Assembly: GCA_036560825.1 (NCBI GenBank)
Contig: DATBQN010000004.1
Coordinates: 1-42,195 of the forward strand
Length of the DNA: 42,195 nucleotides
Reading direction: 5' to 3'
Source: Thermoanaerobaculia bacterium
Lineage (GTDB): Bacteria > Acidobacteriota > Thermoanaerobaculia > Multivoradales > UBA5704
The translations under genes were made by a program, and so were the position numbers. The notes beneath the pieces were generated by a model. It was not told the DNA's origin. It saw only the letters and a list, made by a program, of their open reading frames with translations, and did no database searches. Of the stretch, positions 3,501 to 34,358 are shown piece by piece. Each line of letters opens with the position of its first letter. Position 1 is the first letter of the stretch.

Positions 3501-3613
3501 GCCAGCTCGAGATCGTGGCGCCGCCTCCCAGTGCCAAGCGGCCGCCGCGGCGGCCGGCGCCGCGGCTCTCCCTCCAGGACTATCTCGACAGCCGGAGGGT
3601 CGGCCGACGATGA
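2..3613 (+). CDS. 5-prime-truncated Pro/Ala/Ser/Glu-rich modular repeat protein, function unknown; by position a candidate tape-measure, inner-tube or scaffold protein of the CIS
   Basis: This frame is open from the window edge (codons from position 2) to TGA 3611-3613. The ORF-track start at 137 is only the first in-frame GTG. The stop overlaps the next start (ATGA at 3610-3613). The non-repetitive C-terminus (..APTFEITIGQLEIVAPPP..LSLQDYLDSRR) uses mostly G/C-ending codons. A 3.6-kb open frame is unlikely by chance even at this GC. Confidence 0.6.
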   Translation, partial: SRESVPGSVPEHSRLAAAGGKTAGEASSHELPVANSLAAESGTPSVAQRRLEGAVDLGAPQTAPPGLAVAEESAAVQNRAAALPTPLSPERVSEPGLVPAREGPTEPLRATPVSLPESSLAAPVLRHGERLESGPRLTLTASPSGPGGAVPGTVQRLPEPTGVAGATPPASSVMAGAGESAASPAGSGAQELARNAAGMTPDFRYEASVIDPGSLPSDQVDVPRLVSEGEGAKGSQREGPALSQESAPASAPKRSRLAPVGVEVAGDAASHAKEVVPDVARRPEDAVVGPGASQASPPAFSATEVGAVATKRAAAGATPPASSAMAGAGEDAASPASSRSIRASIVSEASAKPVGRELPEAPLAPDYGSFEREPLASVARELARNAAGVPPDAGYEASVIDPGPLSVERVGGPGLVSEGEGAKGPRREGPASSRESAPASVPERSRLAAVGGETAGEASRHELPTANPVAAESGASSVAQRRPEGAVDLGAPHSAPPVLAAAEESAAVQGRAVTLPTPLSPRRVSEPGLVPAREGPTEPLPATPVSSPESSLAAPVLPRGETLEPVLSSAALAAGPSAPKGAVPGRVQQLSEPTGDAGATPPGPESTTVGEAAASPASSRSVPASSQETAPASVAKRSTLAAAGGETAGEASSDALPAADPVAVEGGALSTAQRRPEGAVDSGVPQAAPPVSAAAEESEVVQGRAAALPTPLSPGRVSEPGLVPAGADSTELLRATPASLPESSLAAPALPRGERLKSGPRKKTPTASPFGPEGAVPGTMQRLPESTADAVATPPVSSALTTNVQELAVAGAPDAEREPSVVDPGAPQAAPPVLAAAGEGAAVQTPAAALPTLLSPEQVSDFGRISEREELAEPPRVAPVPSQQRAPLPAPVRSRGKTPEPGPSDARSAASAPAPDRVVPDTVQRLAERGVGALQAAEASAAPPGAPAEQSPAASTAAGRRGGPETERWSGDASPGSADLESPARGRALPGDAAPDRAALVKRPSRPPLPPPPAPHRAAALTVKGPAAALAPLRSHPEMASAPLAGAAMPPAAAPAAAPLGGPPENALPAPAVPAARQSTSPSALPPARRLAEPARILPSAPPPAAIPGEAAADAAAAERELLAYADRAILGLASPPASASLRHQAVRNVAATADEESAPTFEITIGQLEIVAPPPSAKRPPRRPAPRLSLQDYLDSRRVGRR
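491..724 (+). repeat. Repeat module Y, copy 1
   Basis: The 47-nt stretch gccggagcgacgcctcctgcgtcgtctgtgatggctggcgctggagag recurs at 944 with one mismatch. Shared peptides include ELARNAAG..YEASVIDPG..LVSEGEGAKG..REGPA. Confidence 0.8.
944..1296 (+). repeat. Repeat module Y, copy 2 (about 120 nt inserted relative to copy 1)
   Basis: Same strings as Y copy 1; runs directly into X copy 2 at 1297. Confidence 0.8.
1297..1806 (+). repeat. Repeat module X, copy 2
   Basis: gtctcgggagagcgcacctgcgagcgttccagagcgttcgcgg... aligns base-for-base with window position 1 onward. Confidence 0.85.
1876..2390 (+). repeat. Repeat module X, copy 3 (more diverged)
   Basis: Encodes ...STAQRRPEGAVDSGVPQAAPP...LPTPLSPGRVSEPGLVPAG...GAVPGTMQRLPESTA, collinear with copies 1 and 2. 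Confidence 0.75.
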
Positions 3614-4917
3614 GCGATTACCGCGCCATCGCCGCGGTCACCCAGACCCTCGAGAACCTGCTGTTGGAGGCGATCCGCGAGGCGGTGCCGGGCGCCACGG
3701 TGAAGACCGGGCCGCCGCAGGTCCGCGCGCCGGAGGAGGTGGGAGAGGGGCTGATCAACATCTTCCTCTTCAAGGTCGAGCCCAACAAGGTCTGGCGCAA
3801 CGAGGAGCTGCCGGTGCGGGCGGCCGACGGCGCCCTCGTCCGCCAGCCCATGCTCGCCCTGGACCTCCATTACCTGCTCTCGTTCTATGGCGAGGAGCGG
3901 CGCAAGATTCCGTACCTCCTGCTCGGCCTCGCCATGTCGGCGCTCCATGCGGAGCCGTACCCGGGCATCCACCACATGCCACGCGAAGCCGCGGGCGCCG
4001 TGCCGGGAGAGGCGGCCGACAGCAACCTCGCCGCCTCCGTGCTGGCGGGCTCGGGCCTCGAGCAACAGGCGCATCCGCTCTCCTTCACCCTGCTGCCGCT
4101 CGACCACGACGAGCTCGTGCCGCTCTTCTCGCAGATCCCCTTCGTGATGTCGGTCGCCTACCGCGCCTCGATGCTCGCCATCGAGCCGCTGGGCGTGCCG
4201 CGGCCGGCGCTGCCGGTGCGGCGAGCGGACCTCTACCTGAGCGACGCCCGGCGCCCGGTGCTCGCCGCCGTCGAGCCGCAGCTCCTGCCCTATGAAGCCG
4301 CGGCCCGCCTAACCCTGCGCGGCGAGGCCCTCGCCTCGCCGTCGGCGCGGGTGTTGTTCGGAGACCTGGAGTCCCTGCCGGCGGCGGAGCCGGGCGGCTC
4401 GCTCAGCGTCTCCCTGCCGGTGGGGATCCAGGCGGGGACTCACCTGGTGCGGGTGGCCCACAGCGCGGCGGCGACCGGACCCTCGGCCCGCCGCTTCGCC
4501 CTGGAGTCCAACCCGGTCGCCCTGGTGCTCGAGCCGGTGGTGCGCGAGGCCGTCCAGATCGCCAACCCGAGCCGGCCGCTAGCGGCCGCCGAAACCCCTG
4601 GTGCCGGCGCGCCGGCACGACCGCCGGTGACCCTGCAGGTGAGCTTCGCCCCGGCCGTCCAGGCGAGCACCGCGTTGACGCTCCTCCTCAACGAACGGCT
4701 GCCTGGCAGCGGCAGGCAGCCGCGGTCCTATGCCCTGCAGGGCACGGCCGACCCGCGGTCTCCCGACTCGGTAGCCGTCGAGGCGGAGATCGAGCCCGGC
4801 AGCTACCTCGTGCGGATACAGATCCACGGCGTCACCAGCCGGCTGCGCGTCGACGCCGATCCCGCGAGCCCCACGTTCAACCGCTACGACGGCCCGCGGG
4901 TGGAGATCGTCGGATGA
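3610..4917 (+). CDS. DUF4255 / Pvc16-N-type protein (Afp16/Pvc16-like tail terminator/cap protein) with a C-terminal extension
   Basis: The N-terminus MSDYRAIAAVTQTLENLLLEAI...INIFLFKVEPN...LALDLHYLLSFYG matches my memory of the DUF4255 signature. G/C-ending codons dominate (2 of the first 60 codons end in A/T). ATGA overlap with the upstream gene. Confidence 0.8.
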   Translation: MSDYRAIAAVTQTLENLLLEAIREAVPGATVKTGPPQVRAPEEVGEGLINIFLFKVEPNKVWRNEELPVRAADGALVRQPMLALDLHYLLSFYGEERRKIPYLLLGLAMSALHAEPYPGIHHMPREAAGAVPGEAADSNLAASVLAGSGLEQQAHPLSFTLLPLDHDELVPLFSQIPFVMSVAYRASMLAIEPLGVPRPALPVRRADLYLSDARRPVLAAVEPQLLPYEAAARLTLRGEALASPSARVLFGDLESLPAAEPGGSLSVSLPVGIQAGTHLVRVAHSAAATGPSARRFALESNPVALVLEPVVREAVQIANPSRPLAAAETPGAGAPARPPVTLQVSFAPAVQASTALTLLLNERLPGSGRQPRSYALQGTADPRSPDSVAVEAEIEPGSYLVRIQIHGVTSRLRVDADPASPTFNRYDGPRVEIVG

Positions 4918-5168
4918 GGATCGCCATCCATATCTCCAACCTTCGCCTCGAGCGGGTGGAGGCGATGACCGGCGAGGAGCTGGCGGCCCTCGTCGAGGCG
5001 GAGCTCCAGCGCCTGGTGGAGGTCTGGGGCGTGCCGCCGGCGCTCCGGCAGGGCGGCGCGCTGCAGCTCGACAGCCAGGCGATCGAGGTCGCCCCGGGCG
5101 CGTCGCGGGAGCAGGTGGGGACGGCGGTCGCCCGCCACCTGGCGACGAGCTGGTTCGGAACGGTATGA
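4914..5168 (+). CDS. Small conserved-looking hypothetical protein (84 aa), CIS-locus associated
   Basis: ATGA start/stop overlap with the DUF4255 gene. High GC3. N-terminus MRIAIHISNLRLERVEAMTGEELAALVEAEL resembles small proteins I recall from DUF4255/DUF4157 loci. Confidence 0.55.
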   Translation: MRIAIHISNLRLERVEAMTGEELAALVEAELQRLVEVWGVPPALRQGGALQLDSQAIEVAPGASREQVGTAVARHLATSWFGTV

Positions 5169-33656: not shown

Positions 33657-33671
33657 CTCCGAGGTGCCCGG

Positions 33672-34358
33672 ATGTACAACTTCGTCTTCGACCGCAAGTC
33701 ACTCGTCCTGCTGGTGGCCAACCAGCTGACCATCGGCGGGGTGCTCTTCTTCGGCGGCCTGCTGATCGGTATCGAGTGGGCCCCCGGCGGCGGCGGCTTC
33801 GAGGCGCCGCCGCGGCCATGGCCGGTGCCGCGGGCGGCCTCCCTGGCTCCCGCCTGTCCTTGCCTGCCGGCGCCGGCAGCTCCGCCGGCCCGGCCGCTGC
33901 CGCTCCGGCCGCCTCCGGCGGTCGCCGAGACGGCGGCCGCGCCTCCATGGCCGGATCCCGCGGCGAAGCCGGTGGCGGTCTCCGCGGTCGCGGAGCCGGG
34001 ATCGGCTGTGCCGCCGGCGGCGGCGCTGGCCTCGGCCTCGGCCTCGACGCCGGCCGCGGCGGCGGCCGACGCGCCCGCCGAGCGGGCTCCGGCTCAGCCG
34101 GCCAGCGAGCCGGCGGCGCAGCCGGCGCGCTACTCCCTGCAGGTCGGGGCGTTCCGCCGGCCGGAGAACTCGGCGCGCGTCGCCGAGGACCTGAGGAGCC
34201 GGGGTTACGACGCCTACGTGGTGGAGGAGGCGGGGCCCAGCGCCCTGCGCACGGTGCGGGTCGGCCGCTACGCCGGCCGCAGCGAGGCGGCGCGCGCCGC
34301 CTCGGAGTTCCGGCAGCGCGAGGGGCAGGAGGCCATCGTCGAGCCCCTCGGCTCGTGA
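33672..34358 (+). CDS. Membrane-anchored SPOR-domain (peptidoglycan-binding) protein with a Pro/Ala-rich linker
   Basis: N-terminal TM LVLLVANQLTIGGVLFFGGLLIGI. C-terminal YSLQVGAFRRPENSARVAEDLRSRGYDAYVVEE...RTVRVGRYAGRSEAARAASEF is a SPOR motif. GAGG RBS; 15 nt after the TssJ-like stop. Confidence 0.75.
   Translation: MYNFVFDRKSLVLLVANQLTIGGVLFFGGLLIGIEWAPGGGGFEAPPRPWPVPRAASLAPACPCLPAPAAPPARPLPLRPPPAVAETAAAPPWPDPAAKPVAVSAVAEPGSAVPPAAALASASASTPAAAAADAPAERAPAQPASEPAAQPARYSLQVGAFRRPENSARVAEDLRSRGYDAYVVEEAGPSALRTVRVGRYAGRSEAARAASEFRQREGQEAIVEPLGS

Follow-up and report, generated by a model that had tools for sequence, protein, structure and literature searches.

Can the tail of a contractile injection system (CIS) of the extracellular kind (eCIS), related to Afp and PVC, be combined with the trans-envelope complex of a type VI secretion system (T6SS)? 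The question is raised by contig DATBQN010000004.1 from a metagenome-assembled genome (MAG) of a Thermoanaerobaculia bacterium, a soil-type member of the Acidobacteriota. The whole contig, 42,195 bp with a G+C content of 73%, was analysed and is referred to here as the window. It carries genes for an eCIS-type tail and baseplate together with genes for TssJ, TssL and TssM (TssJLM), a combination treated as mutually exclusive in the field and one that probably marks an undescribed kind of cell-anchored injector. A reading of the window from its letters and open reading frames (ORFs), referred to as the sequence-only reading, had proposed this mixture. Genes were called using GC3 frame bias and then assigned by family searches against Pfam, NCBIfam and PHROG, the last of which added almost no annotation to the window proteins.

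The T6SS trans-envelope genes

The tssM gene (22492..26880, minus strand) encodes an inner-membrane NTPase of the IcmF family, 1462 aa in length with a periplasmic domain of ~1000 aa. Profile searches support the IcmF/TssM assignment made by the sequence-only reading. The protein matched IcmF-related_N (PF14331) at 1.1e-49 and TIGR03348 at 1.5e-72, the latter over model positions 38-456 only, and hhalign against canonical TssMs carrying the IcmF-related and IcmF_C domains gave 100% probability for residues 18-617. A second segment, residues 1161-1398, aligned with residues 928-1119 of the 1151 of the canonical protein (89.8%, E 1.8e-6), which is the TssJ-binding C-terminal region. The window TssM belongs to a family of 1330-1510-aa proteins in which PF14331 is the only domain. 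It aligned at 100% over its full length with family members located inside complete T6SS loci, and these T6SS-embedded members themselves align full-length with canonical TssM. Two transmembrane (TM) segments, residues 15-33 and 413-431, flank the NTPase domain. Residues G107, G112, K113 and T115 of the Walker A motif do not vary, and nor do seven cysteines that all follow the second TM segment in the predicted periplasmic part; judged from sequence, this invariance and placement would argue for a functional and correctly localised TssM.

The neighbouring tssL (DotU) gene (26877..27647, minus strand) encodes a protein with a C-terminal TM anchor and without a peptidoglycan-binding domain. Its assignment holds, with a Pfam DotU match of 2.3e-10 that lies above the cut-off, and the protein is 30-34% identical to TssL of two canonical T6SS loci (L002 and L003 in our numbering of fetched loci). 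The start codons of tssL and of the divergent ATPase gene are exactly 151 nt apart, the distance given earlier.

A TssJ-like lipoprotein had been placed on the other side of the ATPase/DUF4157 pair. One is present there, but it is not the product of the gene that ends at 34358, which was rejected as TssJ on the basis of a Pfam SPOR match; tssJ is the preceding gene (33180..33656, plus strand), which had been hidden by an over-long minus-strand ORF call that overlapped it. The product has the lipobox LVAAGC (a lipobox pattern is matched by 30 of its 33 homologues), and it matches the lipoproteins encoded 5' of tssK in canonical loci at 1e-23 by tblastn and 6e-34 by hidden Markov model. Across ~30 canonical T6SS loci, the homology to the lipoprotein directly 5' of tssK ranges from E 1e-12 to 1e-23. 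The Pfam T6SS-SciN match was sub-threshold (0.005). A fold search with the AlphaFold2 model of the protein (pLDDT 87.6) supports the SciN/TssJ assignment: the top nine PDB folds were all TssJ/SciN/Lip (E 4e-7 to 4e-5, TM-score up to 0.70), and the next fold was approximately two orders of magnitude weaker. PDB sequences searched with hmmsearch, using family profiles of the TssJ-like protein, the 111-aa protein encoded next to tssM and the hybrid TssMs, yielded nothing meaningful; searching by sequence alone lacks the sensitivity needed here, and TssJ was recovered by fold search. A phmmer search with the baseplate J-like and Pvc16-like proteins found no match among the PDB sequences.

The state of these genes bears on the proposal that they are non-functional remnants of a decayed T6SS beside an ordinary eCIS. 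The missing T6SS core genes, described below, fit such decay. Set against it are intact TssM ORFs of 1390-1510 aa in ~24 separate clusters at 90% identity, and over 100 invariant columns in the family, including the Walker A residues and the periplasmic cysteines; TssJ, TssL and the 111-aa gene are also intact and conserved. This conservation effectively refutes decay, which we consider extremely improbable.

Co-conservation with eCIS genes in relatives

Co-conservation of the tssJLM and CIS genes, a check put forward in the sequence-only reading, was found at L001, L004, L005, L006, L010, L011, L101 and the paired loci L027 and L009. At least seven independent relatives keep tssL-tssM beside eCIS genes and five of them also keep tssJ. 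In L001 and L004, eCIS_core and ATPase genes are followed by a divergent cassette of tssL, tssM and genes for 111-aa and 385-aa proteins. In L005 and L006, the same cassette preceded by tssJ adjoins fibre, gpI and BNR baseplate genes, and in L010 an eCIS_core gene lies beside tssL-tssM. L101 (10001-20480) has tssJ-tssL-tssM without tssK or tssA, 3 kb from a DUF6519/Kelch fibre gene. L011 (7617-14287) has a co-directional tssJ-DUF4157-tssL-tssM array, that is, an eCIS-specific gene within the membrane-complex cluster; no CIS structural gene was present up to 10 kb away. This arrangement and the gene order of the window bear out that the two gene sets are interleaved and not merely adjacent. Between the window and L001, identity is 49% for TssM, 61% for TssL, 73% for the 111-aa protein and 69% for the 385-aa protein, and 80%, 64% and 57% for the ATPase, fibre and gpI-like proteins; the degree of conservation is about the same for membrane and CIS genes.

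The origin of the membrane module was examined using TssM. In a neighbour-joining tree the seven main hybrid TssMs were monophyletic in 200/200 bootstraps, and the hybrids together with a sister clade of T6SS TssMs were monophyletic apart from other T6SS TssMs, again in 200/200. The ~30 sister-clade genes all stand in the order tssJ-tssK-tssL-tssM-tssA(-tssB-tssC-hcp-tssE-tssF-tssG), where the bracketed genes are usually present, in Alphaproteobacteria, Gemmatimonadota, Terriglobia, Ca. Angelobacter, Pyrinomonadaceae, Sorangium, Massilia and one member of the Thermoanaerobaculia. The module derives from this T6SS lineage, and since a canonical T6SS with this TssM type occurs in Thermoanaerobaculia, a donor was available. 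The TssM of L101 shares only ~26-30% identity with the main hybrid clade and clusters with that of the canonical Thermoanaerobaculia locus L102, its joint monophyly with the hybrids receiving 16% support. This placement may point to a second capture or to an early split; L101 may be an independent recruitment of TssJLM, in which case the TssJLM-eCIS association may have arisen twice in the Thermoanaerobaculia.

The gene immediately downstream of tssJ (33672..34358, plus strand) encodes the SPOR-domain protein (Pfam SPOR 4e-11), whose hydrophobic N-terminal segment is, from its sequence, a probable membrane anchor. By analogy with the TagL/TagN proteins of T6SS, an analogy that we take from a T6SS review (PMC13584744), it is probably a peptidoglycan anchor. 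SPOR genes are located directly 5' of tssJ in the canonical loci L002 (6103-7044), L012, L013, L016, L020 and L039, and 3' of tssJ in L100. The pairing of SPOR with tssJ was passed on from the T6SS clade, and its occurrence in these six sister-clade loci makes the SPOR protein look like a co-transferred anchor for a TssL without a peptidoglycan-binding domain of its own.

These data also bear on the possibility that tssJLM is part of a separate, split T6SS whose core genes lie elsewhere, the adjacency to eCIS genes reflecting the clustering of weapons in islands. Thermoanaerobaculia do have a canonical T6SS with this TssM type, the evidence here comes from individual loci, and in L004 and L011 the cassette is not beside structural CIS genes. 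Several results argue against such a split. In all ~30 sister loci tssJLM forms part of the T6SS cluster, while the hybrid TssMs form their own clade with 100% bootstrap support and are always linked to eCIS-specific genes, a linkage that persists over TssM divergence down to 34-50% identity. The DUF4157 gene between tssJ and tssL in L011, and the 151-nt divergent promoter region that tssL shares with an Afp15-type ATPase gene, point the same way. We regard a split T6SS as distinctly unlikely.

As a separate observation, L002, L003, L012-L039 and L102 form a widespread canonical T6SS sub-lineage with TssMs of 1330-1400 aa in which PF14331 is the only Pfam match. IcmF-related and IcmF_C matches were not found in these TssMs, hydropathy suggests two TM segments, and the TssJ of the sub-lineage goes undetected by the SciN model. 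Systems of this type may be under-annotated when T6SS are called automatically. The SPOR-tssJ pairing spans canonical T6SS loci of several phyla and is not mentioned in a review of T6SS accessory factors; the SPOR protein may be an unrecognised peptidoglycan-anchoring T6SS accessory factor.

Tail and baseplate genes of the eCIS lineage

The eCIS hallmarks that had been reported for the plus-strand operon and the ATPase/DUF4157 pair are borne out by Pfam and NCBIfam matches. All genes in this section are on the plus strand. The DUF4255 (Pvc16/Afp16-type) tube/sheath terminator cap, which has a C-terminal extension, is encoded at 3610..4917 (Pvc16_N, E 2.7e-27); it has 182 homologues at E <= 1e-10, and a TIG domain is present in some of the best 120 of these. 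A tube-like protein of the Afp5/Afp7 kind (5224..5895; CIS_tube 2e-5, under the gathering score) shows 38-44% conservation in L007-L009, L092 and L094. The spike (7483..8397) is VgrG/gp5-like, with a Phage_base_V match of 1.5e-24 and weak VgrG matches in NCBIfam, and is followed by a gp25-like sheath initiator or baseplate wedge (8428..8838; GPW_gp25 1.7e-16).

Two TIGR02243-type baseplate J paralogues are present, as had been noted. The first (8835..11333) is a Baseplate J/gp6-like, Afp11-like protein that matched TIGR02243 at 6e-63, above the cut-off, and Gp6-like_1st weakly; its GTG start overlaps the gp25 stop codon. The second (11333..15292) contains an inserted BNR/Asp-box beta-propeller (BNR and Sortilin matches) and matched TIGR02243 at 2.9e-44 on its C-terminal half. 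These are followed by the P2 gpI-like baseplate protein (15289..17532; Tail_P2_I 1e-6, above the cut-off) and the fibre-like protein (17590..20955; DUF6519 6e-50, Laminin_G, and a Kelch propeller with Kelch_1 1e-20), both in agreement with the sequence-only reading. The fibre-like gene adjoins the TssLM cassette in L001, L005, L006, L027 and L101. A metagenome scan using the gpI-like protein returned 10 loci, most of them cut at contig ends.

The ATPase (27799..29832) combines a winged-helix domain (WHD 4e-21) with a classic-clade AAA domain (5e-25). Its closest PDB relatives are CDC48/p97/AFG2, consistent with the Afp15-type identity proposed for it and not with ClpV, and a homologue is located within the structural operon in L009. 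The DUF4157 protein (29905..30723) matched eCIS_core at 2.6e-33.

Three smaller genes of the operon were less informative. The 84-aa ORF at 4914..5168, taken from the ORF list, is conserved; genes for proteins of 90-108 aa, a size near its own, are found 3' of Pvc16 in L007 and L008 and 3' of the ATPase gene in L009. A conserved 93-aa protein (5929..6210) gave a weak PHROG match to "baseplate wedge subunit" (3e-4) and has a gene of equal size in relatives. The 408-aa conserved CIS protein encoded 5' of the spike (6214..7440) has no match in Pfam, NCBIfam or PHROG, and copies 33-73% identical to it occupy the same position in L007-L009 and L090-L094.

The missing sheath and a complete relative

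A phage-type sheath and a gp19-type tube were not found in the window, which begins within a repeat array. The first ORF (137..3613, plus strand; 1158 aa in the window) encodes a repeat-rich, low-complexity giant protein, Ala/Pro/Ser-rich in composition, that has no match in Pfam, NCBIfam or PHROG. Its location corresponds to that of the tape-measure gene (Afp14-like), and it is from position that we assign it a putative tape-measure role; the length and repeat number of the gene may set tail length. The ORF is probably 5'-truncated or collapsed. The first 300 bases of the contig share 89% identity with bases 1297-1596. Dispersed repeats of 200-300 nt reach base 1, and other repeats of 70-300 nt recur at spacings of 426-1299 nt. 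Tandem repeats were considered for positions 1-3700 and rejected, as none were detected by Tandem Repeats Finder. The sheath is missing from the window because the contig breaks inside this repeat-rich giant gene, and the L007 and L008 contigs likewise end in or just 5' of its equivalent.

A relative without such a break is provided by L009 and L027, which are parts of one 2,357,353-bp contig of a long-read Ca. Multivoradales (Thermoanaerobaculia) MAG. L009 has the order sheath (1012 aa), gp19 tube, 248-aa protein, 2138-aa giant protein, Pvc16, ATPase, spike, gp25 and baseplate, the giant protein being encoded between the tube genes and Pvc16. At 3.2 kb beyond, L027 has gpI-like, fibre, pentapeptide-repeat protein, eCIS_core, PAAR, tssM, tssL, tssJ, TIG/PKD and FadL genes. 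The L009 sheath matches Pvc2-4, Afp2-4, AlgoCIS, tCIS All3325 and other CIS sheaths, and no match to TssC was found for it. By the gene order of this relative, the sheath and tube genes of the window's MAG would lie directly 5' of the contig break.

Absence of the T6SS core and candidate substitutes

T6SS core genes were sought in the window and in the 10 kb around the hybrid locus of each relative, using Pfam and tblastn with the TssK/A/B/C/E/F/G and Hcp markers of one canonical T6SS locus. As the sequence-only reading had it, TssK, TssA, TssB/C and Hcp were not found in the window, and neither were TssE/F/G; none of the core genes was detected within 10 kb of any hybrid locus. No ClpV is present in the window, where the only AAA+ protein is the CDC48-like one with the WHD domain. 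The Phage_base_V and gp25 domains that are present are generic to all CIS. Comparison by hhalign of the 385-aa, gpI-like, fibre and TIGR02243 families with TssA, TssK, TssF and TssG assembled from raw ORFs gave no signal, in an insensitive test whose positive control, gp25 against TssE, also failed.

Two further genes lie in the minus-strand cassette. The 111-aa gene directly 3' of tssM (22146..22481), described previously as PAAR-like, encodes a protein with 66-79% identity among five loci, for which 31 representatives were found as relatives among 1.84 billion proteins. The label is weakly supported: the protein has no significant PAAR match of its own in family searches, while several of its relatives have sub-threshold PAAR_motif matches (3.5e-4 to 0.15) and a canonical PAAR gene (5e-20) adjoins tssM in L027. 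A single-sequence AlphaFold2 model was unusable (pLDDT 42). In one metagenomic relative, P0279, a fragment of the 111-aa protein is fused to a gp25 domain in one predicted protein, which would put the family, in some loci, at the position classically taken by Afp9/Afp10. The 385-aa helical protein (20971..22128, minus strand) is specific to the cassette and has no match in Pfam, NCBIfam or PHROG; neither a signal peptide nor a TM segment is apparent from its sequence. Copies 35-69% identical to it directly follow the 111-aa gene in L001, L004, L005 and L006, and we speculate that it is an adaptor.

A proposed cell-anchored machine

We favour, with moderate confidence, the reading that the two gene sets specify one machine, in which a tail of the eCIS lineage has taken over a T6SS membrane complex and is fired from within the cell. 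The first module would be a contractile tail of fixed length and of Afp/PVC (eCIS) descent, for which the window would supply the tape-measure-like giant protein, the DUF4255 cap, the spike, gp25, the two TIGR02243 wedges, the gpI-like and fibre-like proteins, the ATPase and the DUF4157 protein. The second would be a trans-envelope complex acquired from a co-resident T6SS lineage, canonical and of the Acidobacteriota/Gemmatimonadota/Alphaproteobacteria type. It would consist of TssJ, TssL with its C-terminal tail anchor, TssM as the NTPase that bears a periplasmic arm, and the SPOR protein as peptidoglycan anchor. The PAAR-like protein, the 385-aa helical protein, the TIG/PKD lipoprotein described below and possibly a FadL-type barrel would be lineage-specific additions.

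In operation, TssJLM would assemble in the envelope, and the AAA+ ATPase would help to build a capped tail of defined length. The eCIS-type baseplate would dock on the cytoplasmic face of TssL/TssM without TssK, through a link that may be the fibre or gpI-like proteins or the 385-aa protein. These three are candidate substitutes for TssK/TssFG/TssA, as is the DUF4157 protein, whose gene lies between tssJ and tssL in L011. Contraction would then push the spike and tube via the TssJLM channel into a neighbouring cell. The absence of ClpV, along with the cap and the tape-measure-like protein, suggests a device of fixed length that is used once and would probably be single-shot.

A number of observations weigh against a single machine of this kind. 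TssK, TssF/G and TssA, which provide baseplate-TssLM coupling and assembly priming in T6SS, are absent. The tssJ and SPOR genes are not always beside tssLM, being on a separate contig in L100, which is from the same sample as L001, and in L004 and L011 the structural operon either lies at a distance of >10 kb or was not seen. The locus-level nature of the evidence, mentioned above, counts here as well. Finally, the cap, tape-measure-like and fibre-like proteins are features of released particles. This last point, with the missing TssK/TssFG for baseplate docking, leads to another explanation, in which the eCIS is still released as a free particle and TssJLM plays another part for it, for instance as a platform for assembly, a conduit for export or release, a station for loading effectors or a trigger. 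The co-option of IcmF/DotU by a machine other than a CIS, the type IVB secretion system known as Dot/Icm, is a precedent for such a role, and NCBIfam includes an IcmF_IVB family. Yet the TssJLM channel is sized for a tube and spike and not for a sheathed particle, and the complete TssJ-TssM periplasmic arm is retained with its peptidoglycan anchor, features that make most sense as a trans-envelope conduit. Release as a free particle is, in our judgement, unlikely.

If the tail does fire from the cell, the loci could represent a fifth, independently evolved class of cell-anchored CIS, in which a capped and tape-measured Afp/PVC-lineage tail replaced TssBC/Hcp/TssEFGK/TssA/ClpV on a TssJLM-SPOR complex; our opinion on this classification is evenly balanced.

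Relation to known systems

Full-text searches, with incomplete coverage of the literature, found no eCIS locus with TssJLM, in keeping with the earlier view that no described class combines these parts. TssJ, TssL and TssM have been stated to be absent from eCIS or used as exclusion criteria (PMC8213781, PMC8651086, PMC6899500): Geller et al. dropped candidate eCIS operons with COG3523/TssM within 10 kb (PMC8213781), and TssJ/L/M have served as markers "not present in eCISs" (PMC8651086). A 2023 eCIS review makes no mention of TssM or TssJ, and a 2026 review still lists four T6SS classes (PMC13584744). Since the eCIS/T6SS split rests on the presence or absence of TssJLM and serves in genome surveys as a classifier or filter, loci of the kind described here are discarded or mislabelled "T6SS ImpL".

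Canonical T6SS-i was compared using the sub-lineage found in Sorangium, Gemmatimonadota, Alphaproteobacteria MAGs and Acidobacteriota (L002, L003, L016, L020, L102). The hybrid loci share with it homologous TssJ, TssL, TssM and SPOR proteins, the length and two-TM topology of TssM, the logic of a spike with a putative PAAR, and a presumed firing from inside the cell through TssJLM. They differ in having no TssB/C sheath, Hcp, TssK, TssF/G, TssA or ClpV, and their tail and baseplate belong instead to the eCIS type, with TIGR02243 and gpI-like proteins and, in the relative, a phage-type sheath. Tail length, set in T6SS-i by TssA and cell width, would be set by the cap and the tape-measure-like protein, and the ATPase is CDC48-like and of the Afp15 type in place of ClpV. 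With Afp, PVC and AlgoCIS the hybrids have in common the DUF4255 cap, Afp15-type ATPase, DUF4157, gp25, TIGR02243, gpI-like and fibre proteins and a giant gene in the tape-measure position, and the sheath of the relative is most similar to Pvc/Afp/AlgoCIS/tCIS sheaths. Unlike these systems they carry TssJ, TssL and TssM, which makes release as a free particle doubtful.

Anchored tails of the eCIS lineage are already known. In the T6SS-iv system of Amoebophilus asiaticus and in the tCIS that Anabaena anchors to its thylakoids, such tails function attached to a membrane of the producer cell, as would be the case for the hybrid. T6SS-iv and tCIS, the subjects of Bock et al. 2017 and Weiss et al. 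2022, reportedly anchor via lineage-specific baseplate or anchor proteins and are said to be without TssJLM homologues, in contrast to the hybrid loci. Streptomyces CIS-Sc with CisA is likewise a cytoplasmic eCIS-lineage tail with a dedicated membrane protein for firing, but in CIS-Sc the one membrane protein is unrelated and sits in a Gram-positive envelope, and the outcome is death of the cell instead of secretion across the envelope (PMC12237407). The IcmF-DotU pair of Legionella Dot/Icm is another example of a different machine co-opting TssM/TssL; its partner, however, is a type IVB secretion system, with no TssJ or contractile tail.

If the proposed machine is real, the T6SS membrane complex would be a portable, exchangeable module to which a non-cognate baseplate can dock even when TssK is missing. 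The loci would then provide a natural experiment on TssLM-baseplate docking in the absence of TssK, with a bearing on the long-standing question of the origin of T6SS from phage-tail-like particles, and would suggest a way to engineer PVC-like tails that are programmable and fired by living cells. They also extend contractile weaponry in the Acidobacteriota, an abundant but poorly cultured soil phylum.

Neighbouring genes and minor observations

A lipoprotein gene with four TIG domains and a PKD domain (30741..33008, minus strand; lipobox LLGAC) is divergent from tssJ. The original 957-aa call was rejected and the start corrected to 33008, since tssJ overlaps the over-long minus-strand ORF. 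On the other side of the SPOR gene lies a FadL-family outer-membrane beta-barrel gene (34363..35661, minus strand; Toluene_X 7e-44), whose participation in the system is uncertain. Both are syntenic with tssJ in the window, in L100 (7501-12327) and in L027 (5093-8751). They were found beside tssJ in none of the canonical T6SS loci, against these three diverged hybrid loci, and may be hybrid-specific outer-membrane accessories.

The three genes beyond FadL are probably outside the system. The first (35826-38003, plus strand) encodes a 725-aa protein with no family match and no homologue in any fetched locus, the second (38056-40608, minus strand) an 850-aa protein with weak cytochrome-c matches only, and the third is located at 40664-41566 (plus strand).

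Among the other loci, L026 (DATMNZ010000192.1) is labelled Candidatus Saccharimonadales and carries a full Gram-negative T6SS in the order tssJ-K-M-A-B-C; this contig is probably mis-binned. A 665-aa pentapeptide-repeat protein is encoded after eCIS_core in L027 (15732-17729), and a 3979-aa RHS/YD-repeat protein gene adjoins the cassette in L004 (18218-24290). These two proteins are candidate cargo or effectors that differ between hybrid loci.

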